Assembly (NCBI GenBank): GCA_009392915.1 | Contig: CP045477.1 | Span: 448,001-512,000, forward strand | Reading direction: 5' to 3' | DNA: 64,000 nucleotides | Source of the DNA: Candidatus Forterrea multitransposorum CG_2015-17_Forterrea_25_41 | Lineage (GTDB): Archaea; Iainarchaeota; Iainarchaeia; Iainarchaeales; CSSED10-239 | Shown here: positions 14,921 to 53,017 of the stretch, piece by piece | How positions within the stretch are numbered: position 1 is the stretch's first letter | Layout: every line of letters begins with the position of its first letter | The notes under the pieces: generated by a model | The model's input: the letters and a program-made list of their open reading frames with translations, nothing else | Database searches by the model: none | Told to the model about the DNA's origin: nothing | Position numbers and translations under genes: made by a program

Positions 14921-15520
14921 TTACTTAAAAAGATTTAAAATTAATAAAAAAACAGACAAAGAAATAAAAAAGAACAATTCAAAGATACCAGTGAAACCAA
15001 ACAAAAATAACATTAAAAGAGAGCCTCCTAAAGTTATTAAAAACCAATTAAAAGATTTTAGATATATTTTCTTATTATAAGAAGAAAGATATTTAGAGAA
15101 TAAAAATAAAGAAAACATTAAGAACAAAGAAAACAAAAAAGCAAATATATTATGAAAATTAAAAAAAGAAGTATTTTTAATTTCATAATCAACAAACTCA
15201 TAATCATTTTCAACAAAAGTGTTATCAATGGTTGGAGTTAAAACAGTCAATACTAAAAAAAGTATTGAAAATAAAAGAAATTTAAAAGATTTTTTATCAT
15301 GATAATTATATTTTTTATAAATATTATATATAGTTATAAATAATAAAATACCAGTTATCAATCCCCAAACTATAAACTTAAGCTTATAATCAAATAGATT
15401 TCCTATCTTACTTAAAGTATACTCAAAAGGAGATTCATTAAAGCTAAACCATAAAGTAAACAAAGGTATGCTTATTATAAAATAAGTTAAAACAGTGTTA
15501 TTAAATTTAGTAAAATACAT
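14921..15520 (-). CDS. polytopic membrane protein, unknown function
   Basis: ORF track; multiple TM helices. Confidence 0.3.
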   Translation of the reverse strand: MYFTKFNNTVLTYFIISIPLFTLWFSFNESPFEYTLSKIGNLFDYKLKFIVWGLITGILLFITIYNIYKKYNYHDKKSFKFLLFSILFLVLTVLTPTIDNTFVENDYEFVDYEIKNTSFFNFHNIFAFLFSLFLMFSLFLFSKYLSSYNKKIYLKSFNWFLITLGGSLLMLFLFGFTGIFELFFFISLSVFLLILNLFK

Positions 15521-19985: not shown

Positions 19986-20057
19986 GCGCCCCAGGCGGGA
20001 GTCGAACCCGCCCCACAACCTTGACAGGGTCGTATCCTAACCGATAGACTACTGGGG
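19986..20057 (-). tRNA. tRNA-Asp (anticodon GUC)
   Basis: Manual fold: acceptor GCCCCAG/CUGGGGC, anticodon stem CGACC/GGUUG, loop CUGUCAA, T-arm GCGGG-UUCGACU-CCCGC; discriminator G; no CCA. Confidence 0.8.
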
Positions 20058-20174
20058 CTTTTTGTTAAAGATTTTAAATTTATACTAAATAAAATAGTTA
20101 AACTATAAATAAATTAATGCACAAAAACATTTATATTTGTATCTTCTAACAAAATTACATCTAAAAACCATGTA

Positions 20175-20777
20175 TTATTTTATCTTTTTTAAAAAATACC
20201 AAAAAGCAATAAATAACACTACAAAACCAACTAAAAAAATCATTAAAACATTAAAATAATTTAAAACTGATTTTGAAATCTCTTCTCCAAGCTTATAACC
20301 AAGAATTGTTAAAAAAGAAACCCATAAAAAAGATCCTAAAAAAGTGTAAAAAATAAAATCTTTTAAAGGCATTTTTGAAAAACCAGCAGGAATAGAAATA
20401 TACTGTCTTACAACAGGTATTAACCTTCCAAAAAAAGTTGCTGATTTACCATATTTTTTAAAAAACAATTCTGCTTTTTCTAGATGAGAAATATTTATAA
20501 AGAATATTCTTTGGTGTCTTAAAAGATATCTCCTTCCTAAATAATAACCTATAGAATAATTTATTAATGCACCAAAAACAGAACCTAAAGTTCCTAAAAG
20601 AATTACAAGAAATATATTTAAATTACCTACATATGCAAAAGCACCTGCAGGAACCATTATGATCTCTGAAGGAAAAGGAATAAATGAACTTTCAATAGTC
20701 ATTAATAAAAACACCAATAAATGTCCAACAAATCCTGTTAAATAATCAGACAAAAATAAAATCATTTCTTCAAACAT
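20175..20777 (-). CDS. DedA/SNARE-associated family membrane protein
   Basis: Family-typical motifs (PFPSEIIMVPAGAFAY, GRLIPVVRQYISIPAG). Confidence 0.7.
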   Translation of the reverse strand: MFEEMILFLSDYLTGFVGHLLVFLLMTIESSFIPFPSEIIMVPAGAFAYVGNLNIFLVILLGTLGSVFGALINYSIGYYLGRRYLLRHQRIFFINISHLEKAELFFKKYGKSATFFGRLIPVVRQYISIPAGFSKMPLKDFIFYTFLGSFLWVSFLTILGYKLGEEISKSVLNYFNVLMIFLVGFVVLFIAFWYFLKKIK

Positions 20778-20805: not shown

Positions 20806-21510
20806 CTAAACTATATAACTAGATACAAAAAAGATTAAAAGACTTACTGGAAGTAAAAAACATAAATAAATCCAAACTTTCTTTGAATTACTATCAATCT
20901 GTGATAAATAAATTGAAGAAATTATAACATATTCAACTAAATATACAATTGCACAATAATAACTTACAATAAACAAACTAGAATTAGAAGTTAAACCAAC
21001 AACTGAAATATCAACAATTCCAGTTAAACTTTTAACCAAAGAAATTACAACCCCTAAAATCCCAGGAACAATAAAACCACCTGCAAAAAGAATAGTGTAT
21101 TTTTGCATTAAAAGAATTGAAGTTCTTTCATCAAACAATTCTCTTGATTTTAAAAAATCTTTAACTAAATTTTTATAATCTTTAGAAGTAACTGTTCCAG
21201 TAAAAACTGAATATTCTAAAAGATCTAAAAAATTTGAAAGAAAAGAAGAATTATATTTATTTTTTAAAATATTAAACACTTCTTTAGGGGTATGCCCTTT
21301 GTTTATTTTATTTAAAATTAATTTAAATTCAGAAGATATTAATTGATTACTGGAAGATGCAAGCTTTACTAAAATTACTTTTAGATCATTTGTTTTAACA
21401 AACCCAGAGATTCTTAAAACTTCATCAATTAAAGCATCTTCAAATTTCTTTCTCTTAATACTAAAAAAATAATCTCCAAATAAGTAATTTAAATACTTCA
21501 TTAATTTCAT
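20806..21510 (-). CDS. FlaJ/TadC-like (T2SS-F domain) half-protein: cytoplasmic helical domain plus C-terminal TM helices
   Basis: Domain layout and position immediately downstream of the secretion ATPase; weak sequence-level call. Confidence 0.45.
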   Translation of the reverse strand: MKLMKYLNYLFGDYFFSIKRKKFEDALIDEVLRISGFVKTNDLKVILVKLASSSNQLISSEFKLILNKINKGHTPKEVFNILKNKYNSSFLSNFLDLLEYSVFTGTVTSKDYKNLVKDFLKSRELFDERTSILLMQKYTILFAGGFIVPGILGVVISLVKSLTGIVDISVVGLTSNSSLFIVSYYCAIVYLVEYVIISSIYLSQIDSNSKKVWIYLCFLLPVSLLIFFVSSYIV

Positions 21511-21533
21511 AATTAATTAACTCTCATTTTTAT

Positions 21534-22280
21534 TTATGGAAGATTAGCTTTCATTGTTAGGAATATAAACATATCAATTATTGGAAATAAAATAACAATT
21601 ATAAAAATAACAGATAAAGGTGTAAAAGATAATTCTAAAAAATTACTACCAACTAATAAAAACATTAAAAACAAAGCAGGAACAATTGCAGAAACAACAA
21701 TATAGATTAAAGATAAAAGACTTAATTTAGTGGAATAATTTTTAATTAAATAATTTTGTTTTTCAATAATACTTGAAGATAATGTTCTTAAAGATTCAGA
21801 TTTATTTAAAGAACCAGTAGATAAAACATCTTCAATCTGATAAAAAACTCTCTTTAAATCTGAGTTTTCAACACCCACAGAAATAAAAGATTCAGAAAGA
21901 GAATAACCTAAGACATTTACTTTATATAAAACTTTTTTAATAATTTGCCCAATTAAAGAAGAATCAACTCTATTTTCTAAAGCAATTTTTAAAGAAATAT
22001 TCTTATCTAAATCATTTGCAAGGTTATTTAAGAAAAAAGGAATTTCTTTATTTATTTGTCTTTGATGATTTTGAAGCTTAATCTTGTATTTAAAAAAAAT
22101 AATAAAAAAGAACATAAAGAAAAACATAATAAATAAATTAAATAAATAACTATAAGATAAACTAATAACCACTGAATCAATTAATAAAAAAATAATTAAA
22201 ATTATTAAATAGAGAATAATAAATAACAAAAAGTTCTTTCTTGTAAATATTTCTTTCTTTAAAAAAATATAATCAATCAT
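21534..22280 (-). CDS. FlaJ/TadB-like (T2SS-F domain) half-protein; overlaps the ATPase gene by 8 nt
   Basis: N-terminal TMs, central cytoplasmic helical bundle, C-terminal TMs; operon context. Confidence 0.45.
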   Translation of the reverse strand: MIDYIFLKKEIFTRKNFLLFIILYLIILIIFLLIDSVVISLSYSYLFNLFIMFFFMFFFIIFFKYKIKLQNHQRQINKEIPFFLNNLANDLDKNISLKIALENRVDSSLIGQIIKKVLYKVNVLGYSLSESFISVGVENSDLKRVFYQIEDVLSTGSLNKSESLRTLSSSIIEKQNYLIKNYSTKLSLLSLIYIVVSAIVPALFLMFLLVGSNFLELSFTPLSVIFIIVILFPIIDMFIFLTMKANLP

Positions 22281-24036
22281 AATCTTTTCTAATTAATATT
22301 TCATCAATTATTTTTTCTTGTTTCTTATAAACTTTAAGATAATCTTTTTTATTTTTAATATCAAATGCAAATTTTAATTTATCATAGATTTTAATAGAAT
22401 CATTAACTTTAATTAATTTATTTTTATAAATATCAAAATAAAATAAAACATTTAAAGAAATTTTTCCATCTTTATATATAACTTCACAGATTTCAGTAAT
22501 ATTTCTTAAATCAATAGATTTACCTTTTAAATATTTATTATATCTTCTTTGAGTTATAATTAAATCAATTACACCTAAATCAGTTTCTAAAACACCATAT
22601 GACTTAAACCTTAATAGAGCTTCATTAGCACTTTGAGAATGGAAAGTTGTATATGTACCTTTTGCTTGACCACAAAGCATAGATTCAATTAAATATTTTG
22701 ATTCTTCTCTACTTCTAATTTCTCCAATAACAACTCTATCAGGTCTCATTCTTAAAGTGTTTATAACTAAACTTTCAAGATTAATTCCAATCTCAGGATT
22801 TACAAGTGTAAAAACTTTATGTTTATGAGGGATATTTATCTCTCTAACTTCTTCAACAACAACAAATCTTTCATCTAAAGGAACAAAAGAAAGTAAAGTG
22901 TTTAAAGTGGTTGTTTTTCCAGAACCAGTATTTCCAACAACAATTATATTTGAATCTGTTAAAAAACAAAGACTTAAAAAAACTAAAGCTTCTTTTGAAA
23001 CTGTATTAAAAGAGATTAAATCTTTAATTGTAAATGGTTTTTGAGAAAATTTTCTAATAGTAATACAAGCACTTTCAGTTATTGGGTTTATAACTGCATT
23101 AAGTCTTGAATTATCTTTAAGATAAGTATCTAAAATTGGATTTTTTAAAGTAATATATTTATTTGAGTGCCAAGAAAGTTTATTAATTAAATCCCTTATT
23201 ACTTGAGAAGAAGAATAAGAAAGATTACTTTCAAGCCAACCATAATATTTATGATAAACATAAAGTGATTTTCCTTCTCCAATAATTACAATTTCTTCAA
23301 GATAAGGATCTTTTAATATTTCTGTTAATGGTCCATAATTATAAAGATTATTAAAAGAAATATCTATAATATAATTAAATTGATCTTCTTCAAGCTCTAT
23401 GTTATTAACATAACAATAATCAATTAATTCTTTTTCAATATCTTCTTTTATTCTTTCAGTTGAAACTTTTTCAATATATTCTGTTCTAGTTTTATAAGAA
23501 TCTAAAATAAAGTTAATAACTTCAATTTCTTGGATTGAAAGATTTTGATGAAAAATTAAATATCTTTTAGAAGAATCTTTCATTTCAAATACATTTTTAG
23601 AAATATTTCTTAAGATTTCTTTTTTTAAATCTAAAACAACATAACCTAAATATCTATTAAGAATATATTTCTTTTCATCATCAGTAAACTCATCCATTAT
23701 CTTTAATAAAGCAGGATTATTTTTATAACAAAACATAGAAAAAGAACTTAAAGCACATAAATCACATTTATAAGCTTTATTTTTTCTTAAGATAATAGCA
23801 TTATGTGGACAAGCTTTAAGACACTCACCACACCCATCACATTTTTCAGAATCAATTGCTACAACGCCTTTAGAAACATAATAAATAGCATTTTTTTTAC
23901 AAGCTTTAATACAAGGAGCATCTTTACAATTGGTACAATTGAATACACAAGAAGAGTCTTTTTTTGTAAAATTGTAAGGACAATTTAGAAAAACATCTGT
24001 ATCTTTGATAAAATCTTCTGTTTTCTTAAGATACAT
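22273..24036 (-). CDS. FlaI/VirB11/PilB-family secretion ATPase fused to an N-terminal 2x[4Fe-4S] ferredoxin-like domain
   Basis: N-terminus: CTNCKDAPCIKAC and the canonical CDGCGECLKACP (CxxCxxCxxxCP). ATPase core: Walker A VVGNTGSGKTTTLN, Walker B/Glu RPDRVVIGEIRSREE, His box TTFHSQSA. Confidence 0.75.
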   Translation of the reverse strand: MYLKKTEDFIKDTDVFLNCPYNFTKKDSSCVFNCTNCKDAPCIKACKKNAIYYVSKGVVAIDSEKCDGCGECLKACPHNAIILRKNKAYKCDLCALSSFSMFCYKNNPALLKIMDEFTDDEKKYILNRYLGYVVLDLKKEILRNISKNVFEMKDSSKRYLIFHQNLSIQEIEVINFILDSYKTRTEYIEKVSTERIKEDIEKELIDYCYVNNIELEEDQFNYIIDISFNNLYNYGPLTEILKDPYLEEIVIIGEGKSLYVYHKYYGWLESNLSYSSSQVIRDLINKLSWHSNKYITLKNPILDTYLKDNSRLNAVINPITESACITIRKFSQKPFTIKDLISFNTVSKEALVFLSLCFLTDSNIIVVGNTGSGKTTTLNTLLSFVPLDERFVVVEEVREINIPHKHKVFTLVNPEIGINLESLVINTLRMRPDRVVIGEIRSREESKYLIESMLCGQAKGTYTTFHSQSANEALLRFKSYGVLETDLGVIDLIITQRRYNKYLKGKSIDLRNITEICEVIYKDGKISLNVLFYFDIYKNKLIKVNDSIKIYDKLKFAFDIKNKKDYLKVYKKQEKIIDEILIRKDYD

Positions 24037-30919: not shown

Positions 30920-31080
30920 AAATACTCACCTATAATTTTAAATTTTTTTATAAATTAACTCCTTTATTTTAAAGTTTTACTTAGTAACAAAGAAATTGTC
31001 TAATATAATATATATATAGAAAAGTATATAAAGTAATATTTTAGAAGTAAAAATAAGATTAAAACTTAATTAAATTGAAA

Positions 31081-31148
31081 GTAAGAACAGGGATCTGTTA
31101 TATAGGATAACAGTGTGCTCTTACCTTCTTCTTTCTGCCTTTTTTTTC
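31081..31148. terminator. nested inverted repeat (GTAAGA...CTGTTAT-N5-ATAACAG...TCTTAC) followed by a T8 run; terminator-like element or small structured RNA between the pilus operon and rpl10e
   Basis: Read from the sequence; strand assignment ambiguous. Confidence 0.3.
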
Positions 31149-31290
31149 TATTTGTGAAATTAGGTAATAGATTACCGTAAATATTATTGATAAAACTCTT
31201 TTTATAGGTATGGGGGTTGTAAAAAAAAACTAAAATAAGAAAAAAGTTTAGAAAACTAAACTCTTTTATGTTGAAGATAAATTAATAAAA

Positions 31291-33081
31291 TCATCCATAA
31301 GTAGTTGCTTTAATACTTTTAACTACACCACTTACAAGAACCCAGCCACCCCATTGACCAGTATTTCTGGATGAATTGGTTACAGATAAAGTCCAACCAG
31401 GTTCACTGTCACCAACTTCCCAATATTTACATTTTTTAGAAGAACCAAAAGCTTCTACTTTAATATTATAATTACCAGCAGGAACTTTCCAAGATCCATC
31501 TTTATCAGTTGCAAGTTGTGAACCACCATATTTAAGATATAAACCATCATTTCCATAATCATTAGTTATTGAACAAACATATGAAGCACTTGTTGAAGAA
31601 TAATTAAAAGTGAGACCTGCTTGAGAAGTATCATTTTCAGAAGCTAAACTAACTACTCCTTCTAAAACTAAATTACCTTGTGTACTTAAACCCTGGTAAA
31701 AGAAACCTGCAGAAGACCAAAATTCATTTAATTTAACACCACCACCTGAGAACGCAGGCTGAGCTACAACTGTACCACCTGATTGCGACCAACCAGACAA
31801 ACTAGTAATACTAGTTTGATTTAATAAAACTACAGCAGGAGCTGATAGAACAAGATTAATACTTGAACTTGTTGCTGTTCTTGAAGCACCATCTGTTACA
31901 GTTACTCTAATATATTTTGTACCAGTAGTTGAAAATGAATAAGTTGGATTTGAAACTGAAGTTCCAAAAACAATCCAAGTACTTTGATTTGTACTATATT
32001 CCCAGGAATAATTAGATACTCCAGAAACTGCATTACTTACAGAAGAATTAAAACTTATTGTTTGACCAGTATCATAATTTGTACCAGTTGTTGGAGAAGT
32101 AACACTTACAGCTAAAGGATCACTAATTAAAATATTACTAACAGTATCAGAATAAACTTGATTAATAGGAGAAGGTCTTGAAGCATCTGTAACTAAAACT
32201 CTAAACTCATAAGTCCCACCTGTTGCAAAACCATTTGTTGTAGTATAACTATTAGAACCAAAGTTAGTCCAACCAGTACTGTTTCTATTATACTGCCATT
32301 GATAAGATTTAGTACCAATTGCATTTGAAACACCTACATCAAATATTATTCCTTCACTAAGATTATAAACATCACTTGCATCAGGAGTATAAATAGTTGC
32401 TGTTAATGGAAGAACAACTGTAAAATCTTCACTTGAAGTTGAAATATCTCCAGTTCCAGAATCTGTTACTTTATAATAAATAGTATAGCTTCCTGTTGAA
32501 GATAAAGTTTGAGATAAAGAAGCACAATTAGTACCAACTGCAGTATTAGTATCATTTGAGTTTAATATCCATTCACAAGAAACTGTTGAAACATTATTAT
32601 CATAATTTCCAGTAAATGAAATTGTTTCATTATTATTCCAAGTAGTTCTTGACATTGTAATACTTGAAGATAACAAATCTAAAATATTTATTCCAATTGT
32701 TTGAGAATCACTTGAAGAATCAAAATCATCTAAAGTATCTAATTTAATTGAATAATCATTAAATACTGAAAAAGAATAACTTGTATTACAATCAGTACTA
32801 AAAGATGTAAATGATGGTAAGTCAGCTCTCTTATGACTCCAATTACAAGTTACATTTCCAACATTATTACTATATGAAGAATTAAAATTAATTGTTTTTG
32901 TAACATTATAATTTGATTCTTCTGTTGGATTTAATATTGTTGATGAAAAATCATCAAAAATTTCAACAAATAAATCATCACTAAAAGTTCCTTCATCATC
33001 ATTTGCAATTACTAAAATTTCATAAATTCCAGGAGTTGTAAAAGTATAAGAAATATCACACAAGGTATCTGAAGGATTCAT
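31291..33081 (-). CDS. S/T-rich, beta-rich repeat (PKD/Ig-like) surface adhesin-like domain; lacks its own signal peptide. The frame continues upstream through 46 sense codons to a single TAA that terminates the pilin-like ORF
   Basis: ORF track plus manual frame check (see findings); composition SSYSN, TGT, repeated roughly 90-aa modules. Confidence 0.5.
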   Translation of the reverse strand: MNPSDTLCDISYTFTTPGIYEILVIANDDEGTFSDDLFVEIFDDFSSTILNPTEESNYNVTKTINFNSSYSNNVGNVTCNWSHKRADLPSFTSFSTDCNTSYSFSVFNDYSIKLDTLDDFDSSSDSQTIGINILDLLSSSITMSRTTWNNNETISFTGNYDNNVSTVSCEWILNSNDTNTAVGTNCASLSQTLSSTGSYTIYYKVTDSGTGDISTSSEDFTVVLPLTATIYTPDASDVYNLSEGIIFDVGVSNAIGTKSYQWQYNRNSTGWTNFGSNSYTTTNGFATGGTYEFRVLVTDASRPSPINQVYSDTVSNILISDPLAVSVTSPTTGTNYDTGQTISFNSSVSNAVSGVSNYSWEYSTNQSTWIVFGTSVSNPTYSFSTTGTKYIRVTVTDGASRTATSSSINLVLSAPAVVLLNQTSITSLSGWSQSGGTVVAQPAFSGGGVKLNEFWSSAGFFYQGLSTQGNLVLEGVVSLASENDTSQAGLTFNYSSTSASYVCSITNDYGNDGLYLKYGGSQLATDKDGSWKVPAGNYNIKVEAFGSSKKCKYWEVGDSEPGWTLSVTNSSRNTGQWGGWVLVSGVVKSIKATTYG

Positions 33082-33219
33082 TCTTACTTGTGATCCACCT
33101 GCAATTGTATGATACCATTCACAAGAAACACTTCCTCTTTGATAAAGTGTATCAGTTTCAAAAGAAACAGAAGTGTTTACTCTGAATGAATCAAAATTTG
33201 TAACATTTGAAAAGAAAAT

Positions 33220-33744
33220 TTAAGAAGATGGAAGTTCTACAGCACATTTTCTTAAATCAATTGTTTTTTTAGGACAAGTAGAGTTTGATAAAGTAAAAAC
33301 CTTTAAATCTAAAGGATCAATTATTTCTCCAGAATCAACATTAATATCAGAATTTACAATTGTAAAATCAGTTGTTGATTTTAATTTTTTAATTTCTCCA
33401 GATAAAATAGGATTATCAAAATTACCATACATTTTTAGAACATTTGAAGAATTTTGAGAAGTTCCTTGAATATTTAAAGAAAGATTATAAAAATCAATAG
33501 GGGTTGGGTTTCTTAATAAAACTTCAATATTTCCAGTAGTTGAATCAAGATTACAAGATTCTACAACTAAATTATACTTAATACAATCCATTCTAGAAAC
33601 TTCTTGTAATTGATCTTGTGAAACATCTAATTTTTCTCTAACAGATGTTTTTGACCAAGATAAAAATCCTGCAACTAAAACAGCTGTTACCAAGATTAAT
33701 AAAACTACAGAAATTATTGCCGAAATTGATTTTTTTCTATTCAT
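33220..33744 (-). CDS. type IV pilin-like protein (class III signal peptide); probably the N-terminal part of a pilin-adhesin fusion
   Basis: MNRKKS|ISAIISVVLLILVTAVLVAGFLSW: basic residues, a small residue at -1, a hydrophobic helix (archaeal prepilin signature); in frame with the downstream adhesin ORF. Confidence 0.55.
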   Translation of the reverse strand: MNRKKSISAIISVVLLILVTAVLVAGFLSWSKTSVREKLDVSQDQLQEVSRMDCIKYNLVVESCNLDSTTGNIEVLLRNPTPIDFYNLSLNIQGTSQNSSNVLKMYGNFDNPILSGEIKKLKSTTDFTIVNSDINVDSGEIIDPLDLKVFTLSNSTCPKKTIDLRKCAVELPSS

Positions 33745-33830
33745 AAATATCTTTTTTAAAATATAATATAATTATAGATATTATAGAAACTATTTTAAAG
33801 GTATCTTTATTCTTTTAAAAAAATAAATAT

Positions 33831-34172
33831 TTAAAAAGAAATAATATCATTTATTTTTATAAAAGAAATATCTGTTTCAATTGGAAGTTCAATTATATAT
33901 TTAGCTTTCTTTTTTGGAGAATAAAAAGTAAAAGGTCTTAATCTTTTTTTAATATCAATAACTTTTTTATTTGAATCTAGAAAAAGAACATTTATTGAAT
34001 AGAAAACAAAAAGCATATGAATTGAAGAGCCTACAATAGATTCATATTCTCTTTTAAAAATAAGACCAAAATCAAATTTCTTTCTTGGAAAAAACATAAG
34101 TCCAAGTCCTTGTTTTAAAGGAGAAATTATTTTCTTTTTTTTAATTATTATTTTATTATTAACTTTTATCAA
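33831..34172 (-). CDS. DUF192 (COG1430) family small protein
   Basis: GLGLMFF...FGLIF...IHMLFV.YSINVLFLD...YIIELP matches the DUF192 consensus. Confidence 0.5.
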   Translation of the reverse strand: MIKVNNKIIIKKKKIISPLKQGLGLMFFPRKKFDFGLIFKREYESIVGSSIHMLFVFYSINVLFLDSNKKVIDIKKRLRPFTFYSPKKKAKYIIELPIETDISFIKINDIISF

Positions 34173-34178
34173 AAATAA

Positions 34179-35330
34179 TCACACTTTTTTTTTTAAACTT
34201 ACCCTATATAAAATAACAAAATCAATATCAGATTTTCTAATCTCAAAATCAAAAAATACAGCATCTGGTACAAAAATAGCATACTCTGCACAAGAAAGAC
34301 CACATTCACTTTGATCAAAAGGTAAAAAATATAGATTATTACTATATGTTTTATCTAGAATATATTTAGAACTAATAGATTTTAAAGCAATGACTTCAGA
34401 AATATTTACTTGTTCTAGCTGATTACGATTCATATAGGTAATAGTGTCAATTAAAACACTCTCAGCATCTGGTTTTGGAACAGCAATTTGAAAGATTAAA
34501 ATTGTAAATATAAAAAATATGAAAATATATTTGATAAAATTAAAACTACTTTCTTCTTTTATTGCAAACATTATAAAAGAAATAAAGATAGAAAGAACAA
34601 TTGCCATATAAAGAAGGAAATTATCAAAAAATATTCTTGTTATTAAATCTTGATCTGCATACCATAAAAAATTATTACCTAGTATAATATTTATGAATAA
34701 AATTACAACTAAAAAGATTACAAATAAAACAATGGATAAATAATATAAATTTAAAAAATATTTTTTCTTTTGTGTTTCTTCTTTAAAAATAGAAATATCT
34801 TTTGAAATATTTAAAAGAACTCTATCAAGAGGTATAGAACTTTCTTTAAAAGTCTTTAACAATATTAAAGTGTGAGTGATTATTGGACTTTTAATAGTCT
34901 CATTAATACCTGATAAAGCATTTTCAAAATCATCTCCCCAAGAAACTCTATTTGCTATTCTTTTTATTTCTGTATCAATTGAACCATAAACATTTGATGT
35001 TGTGATATTGTTTAATGATATTGATAAATTATTTGTAGATTTATACTCTCTCGATAAATCTTGTAAAAAGAATGTAAAAGAAGTTTCAATTGCTTTCTTT
35101 TTAAAGTGTTTTAAAACATATTCTAAAACAAAACCTAAAAAACTTACGAAAAAACCAAAAAAGAAAACTGCATAGTATAATTCAGTATGAAGAAAATATT
35201 TATTTGATAAATGAACAATTAAAAGACCAGATAAAATACTTGCAAGAATTAATATTTGGTATTCATAATTATAAATTAATAGTTTTAATTTAATATTCAT
35301 TTTATCTAAAAATTTATTTTTTTCTATCAT
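34179..35330 (-). CDS. FlaJ/TadC-like polytopic membrane protein (T2SS-F-like half)
   Basis: TM helices flanking a cytoplasmic helical region; operon context. Confidence 0.4.
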   Translation of the reverse strand: MIEKNKFLDKMNIKLKLLIYNYEYQILILASILSGLLIVHLSNKYFLHTELYYAVFFFGFFVSFLGFVLEYVLKHFKKKAIETSFTFFLQDLSREYKSTNNLSISLNNITTSNVYGSIDTEIKRIANRVSWGDDFENALSGINETIKSPIITHTLILLKTFKESSIPLDRVLLNISKDISIFKEETQKKKYFLNLYYLSIVLFVIFLVVILFINIILGNNFLWYADQDLITRIFFDNFLLYMAIVLSIFISFIMFAIKEESSFNFIKYIFIFFIFTILIFQIAVPKPDAESVLIDTITYMNRNQLEQVNISEVIALKSISSKYILDKTYSNNLYFLPFDQSECGLSCAEYAIFVPDAVFFDFEIRKSDIDFVILYRVSLKKKV

Positions 35331-35346
35331 TTAAAAATCAATCTCT

Positions 35347-36189
35347 TCATTTATATAAAATCCCAATTAATACAAATTCAATTACTGCAAATATTATTGA
35401 AAAAATCAACAATGATTCTTTTAATAAAAAATAATCTGTAAAAGTTATAAAAAATATTATTAAAATAACAATAAAAAAGAAAAATAAAAATATTGACATT
35501 AAAAATAAAATATTAATTCTACTTTTCTTTTGTTCACTTAACTCTCTTTTAGATTGTTCTAAATTAGTTAAGAAATCAAGAATAACTTGATTTAAGTCTT
35601 CTTTTTGATCAATAACTTCAATTAATTTTCTAAAGAAGTTTTTTTCAACTTCAGAATATGTTTCAGAAATTATTGATTTAAAAGTATCTTTAAGATTATG
35701 ATTTCTTTTATTTAAAGCAATTATTTTCTTTGCTTCTCTGCTTAATATATCATTATTTTCTAAGTTTTCAAAAACATTCAATACATCTTTAATAGTTAGA
35801 TTTTCATCTCTTAAAACAGATAAATGTTTTATAGATCTTTGAAATTCACTACCAATTTCTTTTTTTATATTATTTAAAATAAAAAAAGGATATTTAAATA
35901 AAAGTAAAAAAATCATAAAAGCAAAAGTAAAAGAAATAAAAATAGTTATAAAAAAACTAAAAAGATTAAACAATATTCCAAGTCTAATCATTAAATAAAT
36001 AAAAGCAAACTCTATAACTATTAAAAAAAATATAGAAATAAAAGAAATATTTGAAATATAACTAATAGAATCTTCATTGATACCAGTATATTCTAAAACT
36101 CTATCAAAATTTTTAAAAGTACCTTTAAATTGCATAACAATATCTTTTAAGAAAAATAAAGATATACTTGTTAAGAATTTACTAAACAT
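35347..36189 (-). CDS. FlaJ/TadB-like polytopic membrane protein (T2SS-F-like half)
   Basis: N-terminal TMs, cytoplasmic helical domain (EIGSEFQRSIKHLSVLRDENLTIKDVLNVF), C-terminal TMs; starts 7 nt after the upstream stop. Confidence 0.4.
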   Translation of the reverse strand: MFSKFLTSISLFFLKDIVMQFKGTFKNFDRVLEYTGINEDSISYISNISFISIFFLIVIEFAFIYLMIRLGILFNLFSFFITIFISFTFAFMIFLLLFKYPFFILNNIKKEIGSEFQRSIKHLSVLRDENLTIKDVLNVFENLENNDILSREAKKIIALNKRNHNLKDTFKSIISETYSEVEKNFFRKLIEVIDQKEDLNQVILDFLTNLEQSKRELSEQKKSRINILFLMSIFLFFFFIVILIIFFITFTDYFLLKESLLIFSIIFAVIEFVLIGILYK

Positions 36190-36196
36190 ATTTTTT

Positions 36197-39100
36197 TCAC
36201 TTTATATCGAGTCTTTTAAACAACTCGTCCTTTTCATAATTATATTGAGAGATAATACTATTAAAATCTTTGTAATTGTATACTTTTGAATCCTTCATCC
36301 ATCTCATAAGTTTCTTTTTCTTTAAAAAATCAACAACATTTATTGAAGAAGATAAAAGATTAATATTGTATTTATTTTCGGATATTTCTAAATCTACAAC
36401 TACACTTTCATTTTTATTAATTATTTCTTTAATATTTACAATTTGATAAGTTTCTTTAAAACCTTGTTTAATTCTTTTAATTTCTATTAGAATAGATTTT
36501 TGATTAACCATTTTTAATTGTTCAATAAATTTATCAGCAACATTTGGTTTTATTGAAAAGATATTTAAGTTATACCAAGAAACATCAAAAATATCTTCTC
36601 CAAACTCATCAATTGCAATAATATCTGGTTTCTGAGAAATTGTTTGTTCAATAATTAAACGTTTACTTAAATCTGCATTATTTGTAAAAATTCTATTAAT
36701 CCATTCTTTTTGAGGAAGTTTAAATCTATCGTATGCCTGAACAGTTATAATTTTCTGATCAGGATAAAATAAAAGTATAGAATTATAAATTACAAAAGAA
36801 TCATCAACATCATGTAAAATAACTTTATAGTTTTCTGAAATTGCAGACCAGATATATGAAAATACATCTACAGAACCAATAGATGTATTAACTAAAGCAA
36901 CAGGTGTTAATGGTTCATCAAGATATTTTTTAATTACAAAAGAAGAACCTTTACTACTAGTATCTCCTAAAGAATAAAGACCTTCAACTTTATAACCATT
37001 AGGTAAATATCCATCAATCACAGGATGTTCTGGAGTTATATAGATACCCATATTTTTAGTTAAAATAGTTACAAAGTTATTTAACTCAATAATATCTTTA
37101 AAACTAATATTTGTTTTTAAAACACCATACTCTACATGGTAAACTATAAGATTTGATTTTTCACCAGAACAACTAACTTCAATTATTTTTTTATCAAGTA
37201 AAAGATTAGTTAAAATACCTAACCCAAAAAATTCTCTTTGAATAAATTTAAGATAAAGTTTTTGTTGTAATTTACCTAAACTATAAGATAATTTTTCAAC
37301 AGAAATATCAAATATTTTTTGAATATATTTATCAAGACTATGTTTATCTCCATTAAAAGAATAATAGTTTTTATCGATTGTATTAAAAAATACTTTTTTT
37401 AATTGAATATATTCTTTTTCTTGTTCACTATTAAGTTCTGGTTGTACTAAATTATAGAAAAGACCTTTAGTATTATCATAATGTATTGTAACATATGTAA
37501 AATCATCTATAGAATATTTATCAAAAATATTTTTTATATTTTCTTCAAATGAAGCAATAGGATCTTGATACACTAAAGAAGAAAATAGAGAATTGTCAGA
37601 AGATAATTTTTCTTGATATATTTCTTTATTTATTTTAACAGGATTTTTTCCAGCATCTTTTGGAAGGATATAATCCATACCTTTTTCTCTTAAGTCTTTA
37701 AATTTTTCTGCAATTAAATCATTTTTAACTTTCGGAGTTAATTTTACTTCTTTGATAATTTTAATTTCTTGTTCTTTTGGTAATGATTCTTTTTTAATTG
37801 TTTTAGATATTTTTTCATCATCATTATCTTCATCAGAATAATTCTCTTTTGAAGTAACTTTTTCTTCTCTTATAGAAGGAGAAATATATTTTTTATTTTT
37901 GTTTGAAATTTTAGATTTATCTTTTTTATTTTTAGGAGAAGAAATTTCTCTCATACCTTTATATATTCTTTCATCATCTTCTTTAGATAAATCAACATCA
38001 GAAAATACTTTTTTAACATCTTCTTCATCTTTATCTATTTTCTCATTTAAAACATTAACATCAAATTTTTCTTTTTCTTTTTCTTCTAAAGTTTTTGATT
38101 TTTTTAATTTAGAAATATTATTTTCAATTTCAGAATTTAATTTTACTTGATTATTATCAATTACAAAATTTGGTGTTTTTTCAGAAGATTCATTTGTTTT
38201 AATTTCAGAAGATAAAGAAGAATCTTCATTTAAAACTTTTAAATCATTTTTTGAATCTTTATCATATACAGAAAACTTATCTTCAACAGTGTTAGATAAA
38301 TCTTTAACATCATCTTCAATTGCAAAAATATCTGGAACTTCAATTTCTTCAAATAAACCATTAGCCTCACCTAAAGAAGAATTATTTAAATGAGAACTAG
38401 AATTTTTAGAATCTATTTCTAAATTACCTGTGTTTTTAGGAAAATCATTTGAATTTGCTAAAGTTTCTTTATTTTGAGAATCTTTATTTTTATTTACAGA
38501 TAAATGATCTATTTTTGAATATAAATTTTTAACATCATACTTTGGAAAATCAATTTTACTTTTTTTAGGTTTATCATCTAAAAAAGAAAATGATTCTAAA
38601 TAAACTTCTTGATCAAGTTTACTTGCTTTTTTATTTAATTGATCTAATAAATCATCTACATTTTCATTTTTTGATTTTACTTCTGAAAAAATATCATTTG
38701 ATTCTTTACTTTCAGAATATTCTTTTGGTTTAGATACATTTTCTAAAATATCTTTCAAAAGAGACATGGTTTTTTTATTATTATTTGATTCATCAAAATT
38801 TATTTCTTTTTTAATTGAATTATCAATATGATCTATTTTAGGCTCACTTATTAAAAATGAATTTGAAGGTTTTATTTTTTTTTCAGAAGATGAATCCGAA
38901 AGTAGTAGTTCATGAGATGAATCAGGGAGTAATAATTCATTATTAATTTTTGATGAAATTAATTTATTAGATGTTGATTTTTTATCAACTTTATCTAAAG
39001 GAACTTCTTTTTTAAAAATATTAGAATTATCAACCTTATCTAAAGGAACTTCTTTTTTAGAAATATTAGAATTATCAACTTTATCTAAAGGAACTTCTTT

Positions 39101-39547
39101 TTTAGAAATATTAGAATTATCAACTTTATCTAAAGGAACTTCTTTTTTAGAAATATTAGAATTATCAACTTTATCTAAAGGAACTTCTTTTTTAGAAATA
39201 TCTAAATTATCAACTTTATCTAAAAGAATCTTTTTTTTTCTAAAAGGATTAAAATCTTTATATTTTTCTTCAATATCAGAAGTGTCAACTTTTAAGTTTA
39301 CTTTCTTAACATCATTATAATTTTTATTTAAAGAAAAATCATCTTTTTTAGTTTCTGGTAAAACTACATCAAATTTTTGTAATTTTTTAGAATTACTATT
39401 ATTTTTTAAAGAACTATCAATTTTATCTTCTTTTAAAGAACTATCAAATTTATTATTTTTTACAGAATCTGAAGCTTTAGATATAGATTTAGATAGAGGA
39501 ATTCTTTTAATAACCTTAAAACCAGAAAAATTATCCTCTCCACCCAT
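36197..39547 (-). CDS. giant FlaI/PilB-like pseudo-ATPase: roughly 650-aa disordered K/D/S/E-rich N-terminal region with 5x DKVDNSNISKKEVPL repeats, plus a C-terminal FlaI N-domain and a degenerate ATPase domain with no P-loop
   Basis: C-terminal half aligns with the active ATPase at 22273-24036 (LLLDKKIIEVSCSGEKSNLIVYHVEYGVLKTNISF vs ILKDPYLEEIVIIGEGKSLYVYHKYYGWLESNLSY), but Walker A GNTGSGKTT is replaced by HDVDDSFVI and Walker B RPDRVVIGEIRSREE by KPDIIAIDEFGEDI. Confidence 0.6.
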   Translation of the reverse strand: MGGEDNFSGFKVIKRIPLSKSISKASDSVKNNKFDSSLKEDKIDSSLKNNSNSKKLQKFDVVLPETKKDDFSLNKNYNDVKKVNLKVDTSDIEEKYKDFNPFRKKKILLDKVDNLDISKKEVPLDKVDNSNISKKEVPLDKVDNSNISKKEVPLDKVDNSNISKKEVPLDKVDNSNIFKKEVPLDKVDKKSTSNKLISSKINNELLLPDSSHELLLSDSSSEKKIKPSNSFLISEPKIDHIDNSIKKEINFDESNNNKKTMSLLKDILENVSKPKEYSESKESNDIFSEVKSKNENVDDLLDQLNKKASKLDQEVYLESFSFLDDKPKKSKIDFPKYDVKNLYSKIDHLSVNKNKDSQNKETLANSNDFPKNTGNLEIDSKNSSSHLNNSSLGEANGLFEEIEVPDIFAIEDDVKDLSNTVEDKFSVYDKDSKNDLKVLNEDSSLSSEIKTNESSEKTPNFVIDNNQVKLNSEIENNISKLKKSKTLEEKEKEKFDVNVLNEKIDKDEEDVKKVFSDVDLSKEDDERIYKGMREISSPKNKKDKSKISNKNKKYISPSIREEKVTSKENYSDEDNDDEKISKTIKKESLPKEQEIKIIKEVKLTPKVKNDLIAEKFKDLREKGMDYILPKDAGKNPVKINKEIYQEKLSSDNSLFSSLVYQDPIASFEENIKNIFDKYSIDDFTYVTIHYDNTKGLFYNLVQPELNSEQEKEYIQLKKVFFNTIDKNYYSFNGDKHSLDKYIQKIFDISVEKLSYSLGKLQQKLYLKFIQREFFGLGILTNLLLDKKIIEVSCSGEKSNLIVYHVEYGVLKTNISFKDIIELNNFVTILTKNMGIYITPEHPVIDGYLPNGYKVEGLYSLGDTSSKGSSFVIKKYLDEPLTPVALVNTSIGSVDVFSYIWSAISENYKVILHDVDDSFVIYNSILLFYPDQKIITVQAYDRFKLPQKEWINRIFTNNADLSKRLIIEQTISQKPDIIAIDEFGEDIFDVSWYNLNIFSIKPNVADKFIEQLKMVNQKSILIEIKRIKQGFKETYQIVNIKEIINKNESVVVDLEISENKYNINLLSSSINVVDFLKKKKLMRWMKDSKVYNYKDFNSIISQYNYEKDELFKRLDIK
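38991..39230 (-). repeat. five near-perfect 45-nt tandem repeats (unit TTATCTAAAGGAACTTCTTTTTTAGAAATATTAGAATTATCAAC), in-frame within the pseudo-ATPase gene
   Basis: Seen directly; encodes (DKVDNSNISKKEVPL)x5. Confidence 0.9.
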
Positions 39548-39630
39548 AAATATGCCTTCTTTAAAATATATTTTAATATATAGATATTAGTTCATTAGAT
39601 TTATAAATCTTTAGATATTTTTTAATAGCT

Positions 39631-40362
39631 TCAAATAACAAAAGAAATAATTTTTGGAATAATTTCAAAAACATATAAAAGAATTAGAAAGATATAACTT
39701 ACTAGGATTAATATAATAAATGGAATTAAAGGAGAAAACCACACCTTAGAAATATTATGATTTTTAGCAATAACTTTAATTTTTTTAATTTCATTTTCTG
39801 GTTCAATATTTGGCATAAAAACAATTTTTGAAATTAATTTATTATTTTCTACATACAATTTTTCTAAAGGAGTATAAAAATTATTTACTTTTTTTAAAGA
39901 TAAAGGAACCCCTAAAAACATTAGATATAATGATTTAAAAAAATTATATTTAGGAAAATTTCTTGAAAATAAATTATATAAAAATAAGAAAACAGGTATA
40001 AGTAAAGTTAAAACTAAAGCAAAAAAGAAAATAAACATTGGAAAATATATATCAAAAATATTTGTAAATGATATTGCAAAAATAGTATAAAGATCCCCTT
40101 CTCCTATATATGTAAAATAACTAATCTTTCCTAAAACATAAAAAATTAATAAAAATATAAAACTTACAGCAAGTTGTATTAAATAACCTTTCCATAAAAT
40201 AAAATCTGTTTTAAAAACAAAAATACCTAAATAAAGAATACTAAAGATGGCTAAGAAAAATAAAGACATTATATTTATTTCTCTATACTTAATATCTTGA
40301 TAAGTTACATACAATAAAATAATTATAGAAAAAATAATTATTGGTAAATAAATATAATCCAT
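39631..40362 (-). CDS. A24-family prepilin/preflagellin peptidase (FlaK/PibD-like)
   Basis: Polytopic; first catalytic Asp in YQDIKYREINI, second in IGEGDLYT (a GxGDxK-like motif). Confidence 0.55.
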   Translation of the reverse strand: MDYIYLPIIIFSIIILLYVTYQDIKYREINIMSLFFLAIFSILYLGIFVFKTDFILWKGYLIQLAVSFIFLLIFYVLGKISYFTYIGEGDLYTIFAISFTNIFDIYFPMFIFFFALVLTLLIPVFLFLYNLFSRNFPKYNFFKSLYLMFLGVPLSLKKVNNFYTPLEKLYVENNKLISKIVFMPNIEPENEIKKIKVIAKNHNISKVWFSPLIPFIILILVSYIFLILLYVFEIIPKIISFVI

Positions 40363-40369
40363 AAGTTAT

Positions 40370-41281
40370 CTATATTGATCTTTTTGTAAGATACATTAAA
40401 TCTTTATAAGCTTTAACTTTTGTTTTTCTTGCAGTTGATCTTTCAAAAAGATTATCAGTATAATTTCCAGGAGGTCCTACTGATTTAATTTTTTTATTTT
40501 TAATTTTATTTAAAAGAATCTTATTCTTTAAATTATCATCATCTTTATCAAAAAAAGAAGTATTTAGATCAATTGTTAAAATACCACTACCAATCTCAGA
40601 AACATTATAACTTCCAGAACCAGCTGTAATATAGTTTGACATTTTACCAAGCTTAATTGCTGCTTCAAATTTATAAACAACATCATAACTTTTTTGATCA
40701 ATTTTATGAGTTAAATATTCACTAAAACTTGAAAGTCCTAAAGTCTTAAAAAACCTATGAAGCTCTAAATAATCTAAAATATGTCTTAATTTTCTTAAGA
40801 AAAAAGAATCATGCATATAATAAGATAAATACCCAATTGTTCCAGTATATGCTTCAACACCAATTTTTTTTTCTTTAATAATTTTTTCTAATTTATCAAG
40901 TCCTAAAATATAAGTTGCAGAATTTGATATAAGTCCAAAAGGATGTGCAATTGTTATTAAATATCTTTTTTTATAACAAAAATCAATTAATCTTTTAAGA
41001 GAAACTTTATCTTCATAAAGTATAGAATAATTATAAATACTAGCATCTTCAGAAAAAACTAAAACTTCTCCAGAATCAGTTAATATTTTAATACCTGGAA
41101 TTAATAATTTATCTTTTGGTTTAAATTTTAAAAGTTCAAAATATGCTTTTCTAGGATCTAAATAATTATATTCAGTTATAGCTGTACCTAAAAGATTATT
41201 TTCAGAAACTACTTTCCAATATTTTTTTGCAGACTCTTTATTTTTAAAAAGATGAGTATGCATGTCAATATTATATAACAT
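40370..41281 (-). CDS. PHP-family or metal-dependent phosphoesterase-like protein
   Basis: N-terminal IDMHTHL metal-binding motif, additional His/Asp motifs (AHPFG); tight operon context with the peptidase. Confidence 0.4.
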   Translation of the reverse strand: MLYNIDMHTHLFKNKESAKKYWKVVSENNLLGTAITEYNYLDPRKAYFELLKFKPKDKLLIPGIKILTDSGEVLVFSEDASIYNYSILYEDKVSLKRLIDFCYKKRYLITIAHPFGLISNSATYILGLDKLEKIIKEKKIGVEAYTGTIGYLSYYMHDSFFLRKLRHILDYLELHRFFKTLGLSSFSEYLTHKIDQKSYDVVYKFEAAIKLGKMSNYITAGSGSYNVSEIGSGILTIDLNTSFFDKDDDNLKNKILLNKIKNKKIKSVGPPGNYTDNLFERSTARKTKVKAYKDLMYLTKRSI

Positions 41282-49556: not shown

Positions 49557-51170
49557 ATGTCAGATCAAAGAATTATTGAAAATATCAGAAAATTAAAATC
49601 ATTAGGAATGCCTGATAAAGAAATAATCGAGAATCTTGTAAACATAGGTTTATCCCCTGACGAAAGTGCAAAATTAATAAATGATTCTGGTAAAGAAAAA
49701 GAAGAAAGTGAACTTCAAACAAAAATTAAAGAAATAAAAGATAAACCTAAAAAAGAAAAAACAAAAGAAGTAACTCCAAAAAAGAAAGAAGAAATACCAA
49801 ATGATTTCTTTTCAGATGATCAAGGAGAAATAATTGATTCACCAATTAACAATGATACTGATGATGATATCTTAGAAGACGATACTTCAAAAGAATTAAA
49901 CAAATTAAAAAATATATCTTCAAAAGAAAAAAATGATGAGTTAAGTTTTGATATAGATTTAAAAGAAGATAAAAAAGAAGAACCTGATCTTTATAAGAAA
50001 TACAAAGAAGATGAAAATGAAGATTTATATAAAAAATATGTTACAACAAATGAAAAACCAAACCAAGTAGAAGTTAATAATACTGGAGATGTTTGGCAAA
50101 AAGGATTACTTGCAACCATTAACTCTAAATTAACAGAACTTGAAAATAAACAAAAATCTATTGAAGATGCAATTAAATTAAAAATAGAAAATGAAATGGA
50201 TAATATCCAAAAATATCAAGAAAAAACACAACAAGAAACAAAACAAATAACCAGTAAAATAATTTCATCTGAAACAGATAAATTAAATGCAAAAATTGTA
50301 ACAGAAGTTGCAAAACTAAAAATTGCAGAAGCAAAAATAAATAATAAAATACAAATAATTGAAGAAGATAAAGGAAAAATACAAGAACTTTCAAAAGATT
50401 TTGAATCATTAAAAAAAGATTTAAAAGATAATATTATAGAAACTAAAAAAAGAACAGACTCAATTGTATCTAGAACAGAAGAAAGTCTTTCAAAAATAAT
50501 TACAACAACAACAGTTAAACTTAATGAAAAAATTAAAGAAATCAATAGCACTTTAGCATTACAATCAAAAATAACAGAAGGACTTGTTAAAAATACTCAA
50601 AATACATTATCAACAGAAATTAAAAAATTAATAGAGTTCCAAAAAGATATAAAAACACAAATTGATCCTAAAAAAATATATGATAAAATTAGTGAACTTG
50701 AAGACTTTAAGATTAAACTTGCAAATAGATATGAAGAAAGATTTGAAACTGTTAAAACTGAATTTTTACATAAAGCAAAAATTGCAATAAAATCTGAAAT
50801 TGAAAACGATTTAAAAGAGTTAAACCAAATCAAAGAAGAAGTTGTTTCAAAAACAGATCCAGAAAGAATAGAAAAGAAACTTGTAGAACTTAGAAAACTT
50901 GAAGAAGAACTAGTAGCATCAGTTGATACAAAAATAGAACAATCTTTAAAAATATATCAAGCATCAATAACTAAAGAATTTAAAGATAAAATGGTTGAAA
51001 TTGATAACTATAAAAACAGTTTAGAAAAAAGCAAATTATTAGTTGACGAATTAAAAGATAAAATAAAAGAAATAGATAAATTTAAACAACAGTTTATTGC
51101 TGTAATTGATGAAAATATCGAAAAGATGAATCAAAATATGAAGATTCTTCTAGAACAAAAAAAAGGTTAG
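49557..51170 (+). CDS. long coiled-coil K/E-rich hypothetical protein
   Basis: ORF track; heptad-rich; starts 5 nt after adk. Confidence 0.35.
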   Translation: MSDQRIIENIRKLKSLGMPDKEIIENLVNIGLSPDESAKLINDSGKEKEESELQTKIKEIKDKPKKEKTKEVTPKKKEEIPNDFFSDDQGEIIDSPINNDTDDDILEDDTSKELNKLKNISSKEKNDELSFDIDLKEDKKEEPDLYKKYKEDENEDLYKKYVTTNEKPNQVEVNNTGDVWQKGLLATINSKLTELENKQKSIEDAIKLKIENEMDNIQKYQEKTQQETKQITSKIISSETDKLNAKIVTEVAKLKIAEAKINNKIQIIEEDKGKIQELSKDFESLKKDLKDNIIETKKRTDSIVSRTEESLSKIITTTTVKLNEKIKEINSTLALQSKITEGLVKNTQNTLSTEIKKLIEFQKDIKTQIDPKKIYDKISELEDFKIKLANRYEERFETVKTEFLHKAKIAIKSEIENDLKELNQIKEEVVSKTDPERIEKKLVELRKLEEELVASVDTKIEQSLKIYQASITKEFKDKMVEIDNYKNSLEKSKLLVDELKDKIKEIDKFKQQFIAVIDENIEKMNQNMKILLEQKKG

Positions 51171-51178
51171 AAGTAAAT

Positions 51179-53002: not shown

Positions 53003-53017
53003 ATCTAATCATTTTCC

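Follow-up and report, generated by a model that had tools for sequence, protein, structure and literature searches.

We analysed a 64-kb stretch of DNA from Candidatus Forterrea multitransposorum (contig CP045477.1, positions 448,001 to 512,000; hereafter the window) and found that a type IV filament (TFF) gene cluster on its minus strand, locus B (31291-41281), contains a gene for a protein related to the assembly ATPase FlaI that has lost its catalytic motifs. This FlaI-like protein is firmly established as a conserved bona fide pseudoenzyme, under purifying selection as strong as that on housekeeping genes. Locus B as a whole appears from its gene content to be a conserved, lineage-specific, Epd/Tad-like TFF cluster of the Candidatus Iainarchaeum/Diapherotrites lineage (DPANN). 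The best-supported mechanism, to which we give about even chances, is that the pseudo-ATPase is non-catalytic and that locus B would be powered in trans by a second module of the window, locus A, whose ATPase carries a ferredoxin domain (Fer4-ATPase). Loci 98-99% identical to the window came from metagenome-assembled genomes named Candidatus Iainarchaeum, and farther relatives were labelled Iainarchaeum or Diapherotrites. The window has a GC content of ~23% and encodes an archaeal signal recognition particle RNA. Searches used Pfam, NCBIfam, PDB (phmmer) and Foldseek (fold search).

The pseudo-ATPase gene (36197-39547; all locus B genes are on the minus strand) encodes 1116 aa. The protein had no Pfam match, PF00437 included, and its score against the NCBIfam FlaI model was far under the cutoff. 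Residues ~674-985 aligned by phmmer to Archaeoglobus GspE (2OAP, E 3.5e-30) and to FlaI (E 2.7e-21). An AlphaFold2 model of residues 640-1116 (36197-37630) had a predicted local distance difference test score (pLDDT) of 84.5. Foldseek matched this model to 2OAP (E 1e-30, TM-score 0.69) and to FlaI (E 1e-29), and both domains superposed. The T2SSE or FlaI/GspE two-domain fold, an N-terminal domain joined to a RecA-like C-terminal domain, is present in the model.

All four catalytic motifs have been lost, as the preliminary description of this locus had supposed when it called the gene a pseudo-ATPase. In the window protein, Walker A GETASGKT is replaced by HDVDDSFV (aligned HDV--DDSF). Strand 269-273 of the AlphaFold2 model leads almost straight into helix 275-286 at the P-loop site; the P-loop is, as modelled, excised. 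A motif census of 35 distinct orthologs out of 48 loci revealed a P-loop in none of them (0/35); 2-3 residues were deleted at the Walker A site, and an acidic patch (DDS, GDS or EEN) took its place. The EE pair of the Asp box was changed to Q-S/A, the position of the Walker B catalytic Glu varied (GE to D-E/N/Q/D/T/V), and the His box was missing from all 35 orthologs. Binding or hydrolysis of nucleotide via a non-canonical site would draw on the Walker B aspartate (hhhhD), which is largely kept, and on a Q..D pair conserved in the former Asp box. We consider this very improbable: the P-loop is deleted, the acidic residues that replace it would repel phosphate, and 35 of 35 sequences lack the Lys/Thr, the catalytic Glu and the His box.

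The ratio of nonsynonymous to synonymous substitution rates (dN/dS) of the ATPase domain was 0.042 relative to a sister strain and 0.142 relative to a 78%-identical species. In the same comparisons, the housekeeping nuclease aCPSF had values of 0.077 and 0.153. dN/dS for all locus B core genes was 0.04-0.17, on par with housekeeping genes. The loss of the motifs in all orthologs, together with the low dN/dS, indicates that the loss occurred at the root of the family and that the protein has been maintained since. These data also bear on the possibility that locus B is a decaying relic, i.e., a pseudogenised pilus operon. Lost catalytic motifs, an in-frame stop in the adhesin gene of the window strain and deletion of the platform genes in one lineage could all be taken as signs of decay. 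Such a reading does not fit the housekeeping-like selection on every core gene, the confident predicted fold, the intact ORFs (open reading frames) in ~40 loci of >20 species, or the retention of the gene after its motifs had gone. The selection data and the intact ORFs effectively refute it, and we give it next to no probability.

N-terminal to the ATPase-like domain is a low-complexity extension of ~640 aa (37631-39547), rich in K, E, S, N and D. Its length varied from 350 to 640 aa across the family and its dN/dS was 0.38-0.67. Alignments revealed three short conserved motifs (SFLDDKPK..LYSKID, EEIEVPDI..DD and DYILPKD), and the sequence of the extension showed neither a transmembrane segment nor a signal peptide. 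Fast evolution combined with short conserved motifs is characteristic of disordered arms that carry docking sites, and we take the extension to be a putative arm of this kind. The extension also contains a tandem repeat (38982-39239; 45 nt x 5.7 copies, 96% matches, score 463 in Tandem Repeats Finder) that encodes 15-aa units, KKEVPLDKVDNSNIS. In sister strain L007 the assembly has a gap (Ns) at this place, a hint that the repeat varies in copy number.

The pseudo-ATPase family is small and confined to Iainarchaeum/Diapherotrites. Only 17 clusters were found in 5.8 billion proteins, none of them with a Pfam T2SSE annotation. The next matches beyond the family were ordinary ATPases of other lineages, with 22-28% identity.

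The other canonical TFF components are present in locus B: a platform, a peptidase and a pilin were found and a functional ATPase was not, as the preliminary description had stated. The peptidase gene (39631-40362) encodes a FlaK-like class III signal (prepilin/preflagellin) peptidase of the A24 family, with Arc_PepC_II as its C-terminal domain. It matched PF06847 (Arc_PepC_II) with 40 bits, over the cutoff, PF01478 (Peptidase_A24) with 22 bits, under the cutoff, and NCBIfam FlaK_Arch with E 1e-7. Catalytic residues D23 (in QDIKxREIN) and D90 (in YIGEGDL, the GEGD motif) were invariant across 10 species, and the catalytic Asp motifs reported earlier are therefore confirmed. Two genes downstream of the pseudo-ATPase encode the platform halves, of 280 aa (half 1, 35347-36189) and 383 aa (half 2, 34179-35330). 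Each has one T2SSF domain (PF00482, 37.8 and 34.6 bits), both over the Pfam cutoff. Half 1 corresponds to the N-terminal half of ArlJ/FlaJ (positions 20-242 of 555 in the NCBIfam ArlJ model) and is conserved, together with half 2, in ~35 loci. The two proteins had been described as FlaJ halves; two T2SSF proteins are indeed encoded, but they are better viewed as the normal split platform of Epd/Tad-like ("system 1"/4A) DPANN systems. Next follows the gene of a 113-aa DUF192 (COG1430) protein (33831-34172; PF02643, 37.4 bits against a cutoff of 27; NCBIfam PRK03760, E 1e-21), which has neither a signal peptide nor a transmembrane segment and had no relative in PDB by sequence. The gaps between successive genes of locus B are 7, 83, 7, 16, 6 and 86 nt.

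Locus B had been described as eight consecutive minus-strand genes, the last two being a pilin-like gene and a separate adhesin gene. The eight ORFs and their positions were confirmed, but there are seven genes, not eight, since the pilin and adhesin ORFs form one interrupted gene (31291-33744). The 174-aa pilin ORF (33220-33744) and the 596-aa adhesin ORF (31291-33081) are in the same frame and are separated by one TAA at 33220-33222. In-frame translation showed that this is the sole internal stop, at codon 175, with 642 open codons after it. The first 46 of these, which precede the first Met, also code for protein and supply the missing part of a PKD domain. The gene thus encodes a class III signal/pilin domain (aa 1-174), PKD repeats (PKD_4, 38 bits) and a variable C-terminal domain. 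At the codon of the window TAA, sister strains L007, L035 and L036 have CAA, indicating that the stop in the window is a strain-specific CAA-to-TAA change. The L035 and L036 ORFs are uninterrupted (811 and 933 aa), and that of L007 runs past the contig end. A further homolog (P0194, 813 aa, 83% identical) has no interruption.

The pilin N-terminus, MNRKK-S|ISAIISVVLLILVTAVLVAGFLSW, consists of a class III signal peptide and a hydrophobic helix. PF07790 (Pilin_N, the archaeal type IV pilin N-terminal family) was matched by 10 of 16 sampled family members (best E 2e-4) and not by the window pilin head itself. Among 46 representative clusters with this head, ~17 were stand-alone pilins of 163-179 aa and ~25 were heads of proteins of 260-2867 aa. 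Short pilins of 165-179 aa are present in locus B of several species; in six distinct cases of genuine short pilins, there were at most 30 open codons downstream in any frame.

Interruptions of the kind seen in the window were found in two other lineages. In L005, L006 and L039, a TAA (15490-15492 in L005), identical in the three independent assemblies, is followed by 1128 stop-free codons. In L008, a TGA and a +1 shift at ~15166-15170 are followed by 760 stop-free codons. At this genome composition, a stop is expected every ~11 codons. All three independent interruptions are located at the boundary between pilin head and adhesin module, and the downstream modules have neither a start codon nor a signal peptide of their own. 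No common recoding signal was found at the interruptions (TAA ATT TTC in the window, TAA TCA GTT in L005). These interruptions may reflect switching, readthrough or recent mutation. L026 was also considered as a same-frame interruption and was rejected: the downstream ORF there is an ordinary gene in its own right, with a start codon, and further stops intervene.

The C-terminal third of the adhesin (31291-32300 in the window) is hypervariable among strains, with identity falling from ~95% to ~40%. Adhesin lengths among strains of one species were 811, 817 and 933 aa, and the flanking genes remained 95-99% identical. The filament would display large modular adhesins (PKD, LamG-type), which fits attachment to a host or surface by an episymbiont.

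The preliminary description had proposed gene-neighbourhood conservation as a check on its account, and the order of locus B did recur, in ~40 loci of >20 species with pseudo-ATPase identity down to ~40%. The conserved order is PHP-fold gene (described below), peptidase, pseudo-ATPase, T2SSF, T2SSF, DUF192, optional pilins or adhesins, and L10e; this arrangement is far beyond chance. DUF192 was the most persistent partner of the pseudo-ATPase, being found in every locus long enough to show that position. It is encoded directly 3′ of the platform genes, or of the pseudo-ATPase where the platform genes are deleted. Such a clean deletion of both platform genes occurred in one lineage (L001/L002, L020, L053 and L054; many independent assemblies), which retains the PHP-fold gene, peptidase, pseudo-ATPase and DUF192, with ~72 nt between the last two. 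Between this lineage and platform-bearing L022, dN/dS of the ATPase-like domain was 0.10 at dS 0.77. This constraint in a lineage whose platform is deleted indicates that the pseudo-ATPase has a function not requiring its own platform.

An intact TFF ATPase, fused at its N-terminus to a 2x[4Fe-4S] ferredoxin domain, is encoded by locus A (22273-24036, minus strand; T2SSE, 122 bits, plus Fer4 families), 12 kb from locus B on the same strand. Its motifs are intact (Walker A GNTGSGKTT, Asp box VVVEEVRE, Walker B RPDRVVIGEIR, His box TTFHS), and there are at least 8 Cys for two [4Fe-4S] clusters. It matched 2OAP (9e-45), FlaI (7e-37) and CpaF (1.6e-34) in PDB and is the only other T2SSE-type protein in the window. 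Next to it on the minus strand are two platform halves of 248 and 234 aa (20806-22280), with one T2SSF domain each (PF00482, 18 and 30 bits), and a DedA/VTT-domain membrane protein gene (20175-20777; PF09335, 83 bits) that ends the module. No pilin or peptidase gene was found beside locus A in the window, or beside the corresponding trio in L031 and L032. Locus A had been described in this way, as the sole intact ATPase in the window, with a split platform and no pilin or peptidase beside it, and this description is correct. No further TFF genes were found in the window.

The Fer4-ATPase family comprises >100 clusters across Iainarchaeum, Diapherotrites and Micrarchaeota. The trio of Fer4-ATPase and two T2SSF proteins is kept, down to 37% identity, in L012, L023, L031, L032 and L034. 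DedA ends the module in five of the six loci examined, and follows the trio in L012, L023, L032 and L034. A membrane-anchored winged helix-turn-helix protein (17248-18150) and a secreted protein (18230-19753) are encoded near locus A in the window and recur near the module in L034; a tRNA gene (19987-20058) separates the two from the locus A operon.

The preliminary description had suggested that the two loci are complementary halves of one machine, or that locus B recruits the Fer4-ATPase in trans. Four observations favour a connection of this kind. In L012, the DUF192 gene is followed, after a contiguous 66-nt spacer, by Fer4-ATPase-T2SSF-T2SSF-DedA on the same strand. In L021/L023, where pseudo-ATPase identity is ~48%, the Fer4-ATPase gene lies ~18 kb downstream of locus B on the same strand and contig, the layout being as in the window. 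In L034, five proteins with the locus B pilin head (K-R-S-L-S-P-L-I-A-T-I-L-L..., e.g. KRSLSPLIATILLIVVSVILITVVLTW) are encoded on the flanks of the Fer4-ATPase trio, and the active motor is thus genetically tied to these pilins. Finally, the pseudo-ATPase is constrained in the lineage without platform genes.

A mechanism consistent with these observations can be outlined. The pseudo-ATPase would act as a non-catalytic scaffold or regulator at the cytoplasmic face of the platform, and its N-terminal arm would recruit partners. Pilin extraction and filament assembly would be driven by ATP hydrolysis supplied in trans by locus A (ATPase, split platform and DedA). The locus B peptidase would cut the locus B prepilins, which would then be polymerised by, or under the control of, both modules together. 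The Fe-S domain would make assembly redox-sensitive.

A number of findings weigh against powering in trans. Among 25 further metagenome loci, none had a Fer4-ATPase gene within 10 kb, and direct adjacency of locus B and locus A was seen in one of ~40 loci (L012 only). The AT-rich spacer in L012 may hold its own promoter. The 12-18 kb proximity in the other cases lies inside a conserved housekeeping synteny block (L10e, methyltransferase, NDK, phosphoribosyl pyrophosphate synthase). Each module has its own platform pair, and the cognate platform is the normal binding partner of TFF ATPases. The Fer4-ATPase and the pseudo-ATPase share 23% identity and are not recent paralogs; the former matches bacterial CpaF as well as FlaI, whereas the latter is clearly FlaI/GspE-like. 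The Fer4-ATPase family is also far broader than the pseudo-ATPase family, and locus A therefore works without locus B elsewhere.

Several of these points would be explained if the two modules were independent. Locus B would then be a motor-less processing and display platform with the pseudo-ATPase as a structural cap, and locus A a separate secretion or pilus machine. Cut pilin-headed adhesins would be membrane-anchored or held in a short static stub, for which no ATP hydrolysis is needed. The separate platform pairs, the wide occurrence of locus A without locus B, the rarity of adjacency and the very large size of many pilin-headed proteins (up to 2867 aa), which resemble anchored adhesins, agree with such an arrangement. 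Pilins of 165-179 aa, as found in locus B of several species, are typical of polymerising major subunits and do not agree with it, nor do the presence of the same pilin family around the active ATPase in L034 and the constraint on the pseudo-ATPase where the platform is deleted. To our knowledge, no type IV filament assembles without an ATPase, which also counts against independence. On balance we think independent modules, the main rival to powering in trans, somewhat unlikely.

A further alternative is that a different intact FlaI-type ATPase, with its gene outside the window, serves locus B and has the pseudo-ATPase as a regulatory partner in the manner of ArlH/ArlI. Our ATPase survey spans 64 kb of the genome, many archaea have several TFF ATPases, and a third active ATPase may be encoded elsewhere. 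We nevertheless regard this alternative as quite unlikely: DPANN genomes are small, every active ATPase seen near locus B was of the Fer4-fused type, and the homolog search with the pseudo-ATPase revealed no close active paralog (the next matches being the ordinary ATPases of other lineages noted above).

Powering of locus B by the Fer4-ATPase in trans can also be combined with the interrupted adhesin genes. The dead-FlaI module, with its own split platform, the sole peptidase and DUF192, would serve as a pilin-processing or priming station or would form mixed rings with the redox-sensing ATPase, to which all mechanical work would fall, and the junction stops would be a recoding or switching device. 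We consider this joint scheme unlikely. If true, it would imply an alpha/beta-like division of labour between modules, not described for any TFF system, and a single gene would yield both plain major pilin and adhesin-tipped pilin, in a ratio fixed by junction recoding.

The first gene of locus B (40370-41281) encodes a 303-aa protein that had been described as a PHP-like hydrolase. It had no Pfam match, and a profile of 13 orthologs found nothing among PDB sequences. The NCBIfam CehA/McbA model matched with E 1e-3 and 18.5 bits against a cutoff of 80. An AlphaFold2 model (pLDDT 85.2) matched eight PHP structures in Foldseek at E<1e-3 (probability 1.0, TM-score 0.34-0.57, best E ~3e-6), including PsfC (7RTY, 2.6e-6), PHP phosphoesterases (3E38, 2ANU) and RNase AM (7UG9). 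The assignment to PHP (polymerase/histidinol-phosphatase) thus appears to hold at the fold level only. HxH is kept in the window copy, but over half of the orthologs have N-T-H/Q/S instead; AGSG stands in place of the C-terminal DxH, and the metal-ligand set (HxH, H, E, H, DxH) is incomplete; His113 and Glu143 are invariant. The fold is shared with the PHP phosphoesterases PsfC, RNase AM/YciV and TM0559, whereas the 303-aa orthologs lack a conserved HxH and the C-terminal DxH and have no Pfam or PDB profile match. Because HxH is degenerate, the C-terminal DxH is absent and no curated model matches, the catalytic competence of the protein is doubtful. The PHP fold proposed earlier is supported; assignment to a sequence family is not.

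The PHP-fold gene had dN/dS of 0.04-0.14 and the highest conservation in the cluster (70% mean column identity). Its homologs form ~50 clusters, every one "hypothetical" and clade-restricted. It is probably co-transcribed with the peptidase gene, given the 7-nt gap. A single distant homolog (32% identity) adjoins aCPSF and an ATP-grasp gene, and its surroundings contain no TFF genes. This homolog has the same aCPSF flank as the window copy, and the tie of the PHP-fold gene to the pilus genes may accordingly be inherited synteny rather than pilus function. Of the two associations with pilus genes that had been singled out, that of DUF192 held in every locus examined, and that of the PHP-fold gene is possibly synteny only. 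The evidence for complementary halves or trans recruitment is likewise divided between the four observations listed above and the block synteny, the single case of adjacency, the wider Fer4 family and the separate platform pairs. An ATP-grasp_5 gene (~205 aa) is located between aCPSF and the PHP-fold gene in L001-L004, L016-L022 and L033, and is not present in the window.

We compared locus B with known systems. Its parts list matches that of archaeal Epd-like "system 1"/subsystem 4A (PMC4858521; bioRxiv 10.64898/2026.04.22.720090): both have a FlaI/GspE-type subunit, a two-gene platform, a class III signal peptidase, PF07790-type pilins and an adhesin. For DPANN, the splitting of the platform into two single-T2SSF genes has been noted before (bioRxiv 10.64898/2026.04.22.720090). 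Unlike Epd-like 4A, locus B has an ATPase subunit that is dead in every member, a 350-640-aa predicted disordered arm and a fixed DUF192 gene. In a 2026 MacSyFinder survey, archaeal TFF ATPases carried functional ATP-binding motifs across systems (bioRxiv 10.64898/2026.04.22.720090). Inactive ATPases, ferredoxin fusions and DUF192 are not mentioned in that survey or in Makarova, Koonin & Albers 2016 (PMC4858521). Our literature searches revealed no paper on a pseudo-ATPase in type IV pilus systems or on 4Fe-4S, FlaI and DPANN together, and nothing relevant on DUF192 and pili.

The nearest functional analogy to the pseudo-ATPase and Fer4-ATPase is the ArlH/ArlI pair. In the archaellum, the catalytic hexameric ATPase ArlI (FlaI) is modulated by ArlH (FlaH), which has little or no hydrolytic activity. 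ArlH has a RecA/KaiC fold and still binds ATP. Unlike ArlH, the pseudo-ATPase has a FlaI fold, no Walker A, its own platform pair, and a gene apart from that of the active ATPase. The single-domain RecA/KaiC fold with Walker A of the ArlH/FlaH type was not found in the pseudo-ATPase, and the resemblance is functional only.

Bacterial Tad/Flp systems (CpaF/TadA, TadB and TadC, TadV) share with the system described here a split platform, an ATPase of the CpaF/FlaI branch (see the CpaF match of the Fer4-ATPase) and a peptidase without a methyltransferase domain. Tad systems lack a dead ATPase paralog, an Fe-S domain on the ATPase and DUF192, and the pilins of the present system differ in being archaeal PF07790-type with large appended modules. 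PilB and PilC of Streptococcus sanguinis are examples of type IV pilins of modular build, with a canonical head and a large C-terminal adhesive module. The same plan of head followed by adhesive module (lectin/LamG-like, PKD), which would be displayed on the filament, is seen in the locus B adhesins, whereas in locus B the heads are archaeal, the modules reach 2867 aa and the junction is interrupted by a stop or frameshift in three lineages, with the module ORF intact.

The remaining window genes are housekeeping genes (UvrA/UvrC, ThrRS, SerRS, SMC, aCPSF, L10e, NDK). UvrA/UvrC, ThrRS, SerRS and SMC account for the other large ORFs, together with three unannotated proteins. The latter are encoded by three successive ORFs (537, 607 and 269 aa) at 49557-53827, without a Pfam match; in related loci, syntenic unannotated ORFs of similar size adjoin adenylate kinase. 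A non-coding element of ~130 nt (~31076-31211, minus strand) is located between the adhesin stop and L10e. Many of its bases do not vary among 8 species, although protein identity among these is only 45-60%. A TATA-like TATAAAAAG box precedes the element, which contains an invariant CTGTT/AACAG hairpin and is closed by a purine/pyrimidine stem. Rfam gave no match at E<=1, and RNAalifold lent the structure weak support (3 covarying pairs). The element is possibly a small RNA, or else the leader of the L10e operon.

A pseudo-ATPase retained throughout a clade separates the structural or regulatory role of the TFF ATPase ring from its catalytic role, and is a natural tool for questions of ring-platform coupling. 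Automated TFF detectors that need an active-looking ATPase model would miss locus B or call it incomplete, because the pseudo-ATPase gives no PF00437 match. DPANN archaea are thought to be host-attached, with type IV filaments and adhesins as the main candidates for contact, and we know of no DPANN pilus machine that has been dissected so far. In these fermentative, host-dependent cells, pilus assembly may be under redox control, as the 2x[4Fe-4S] domain on the putative partner ATPase suggests. Attachment specificity seems to evolve fast or to be switched, to judge by the hypervariable pilin-headed adhesins and their interrupted junctions.

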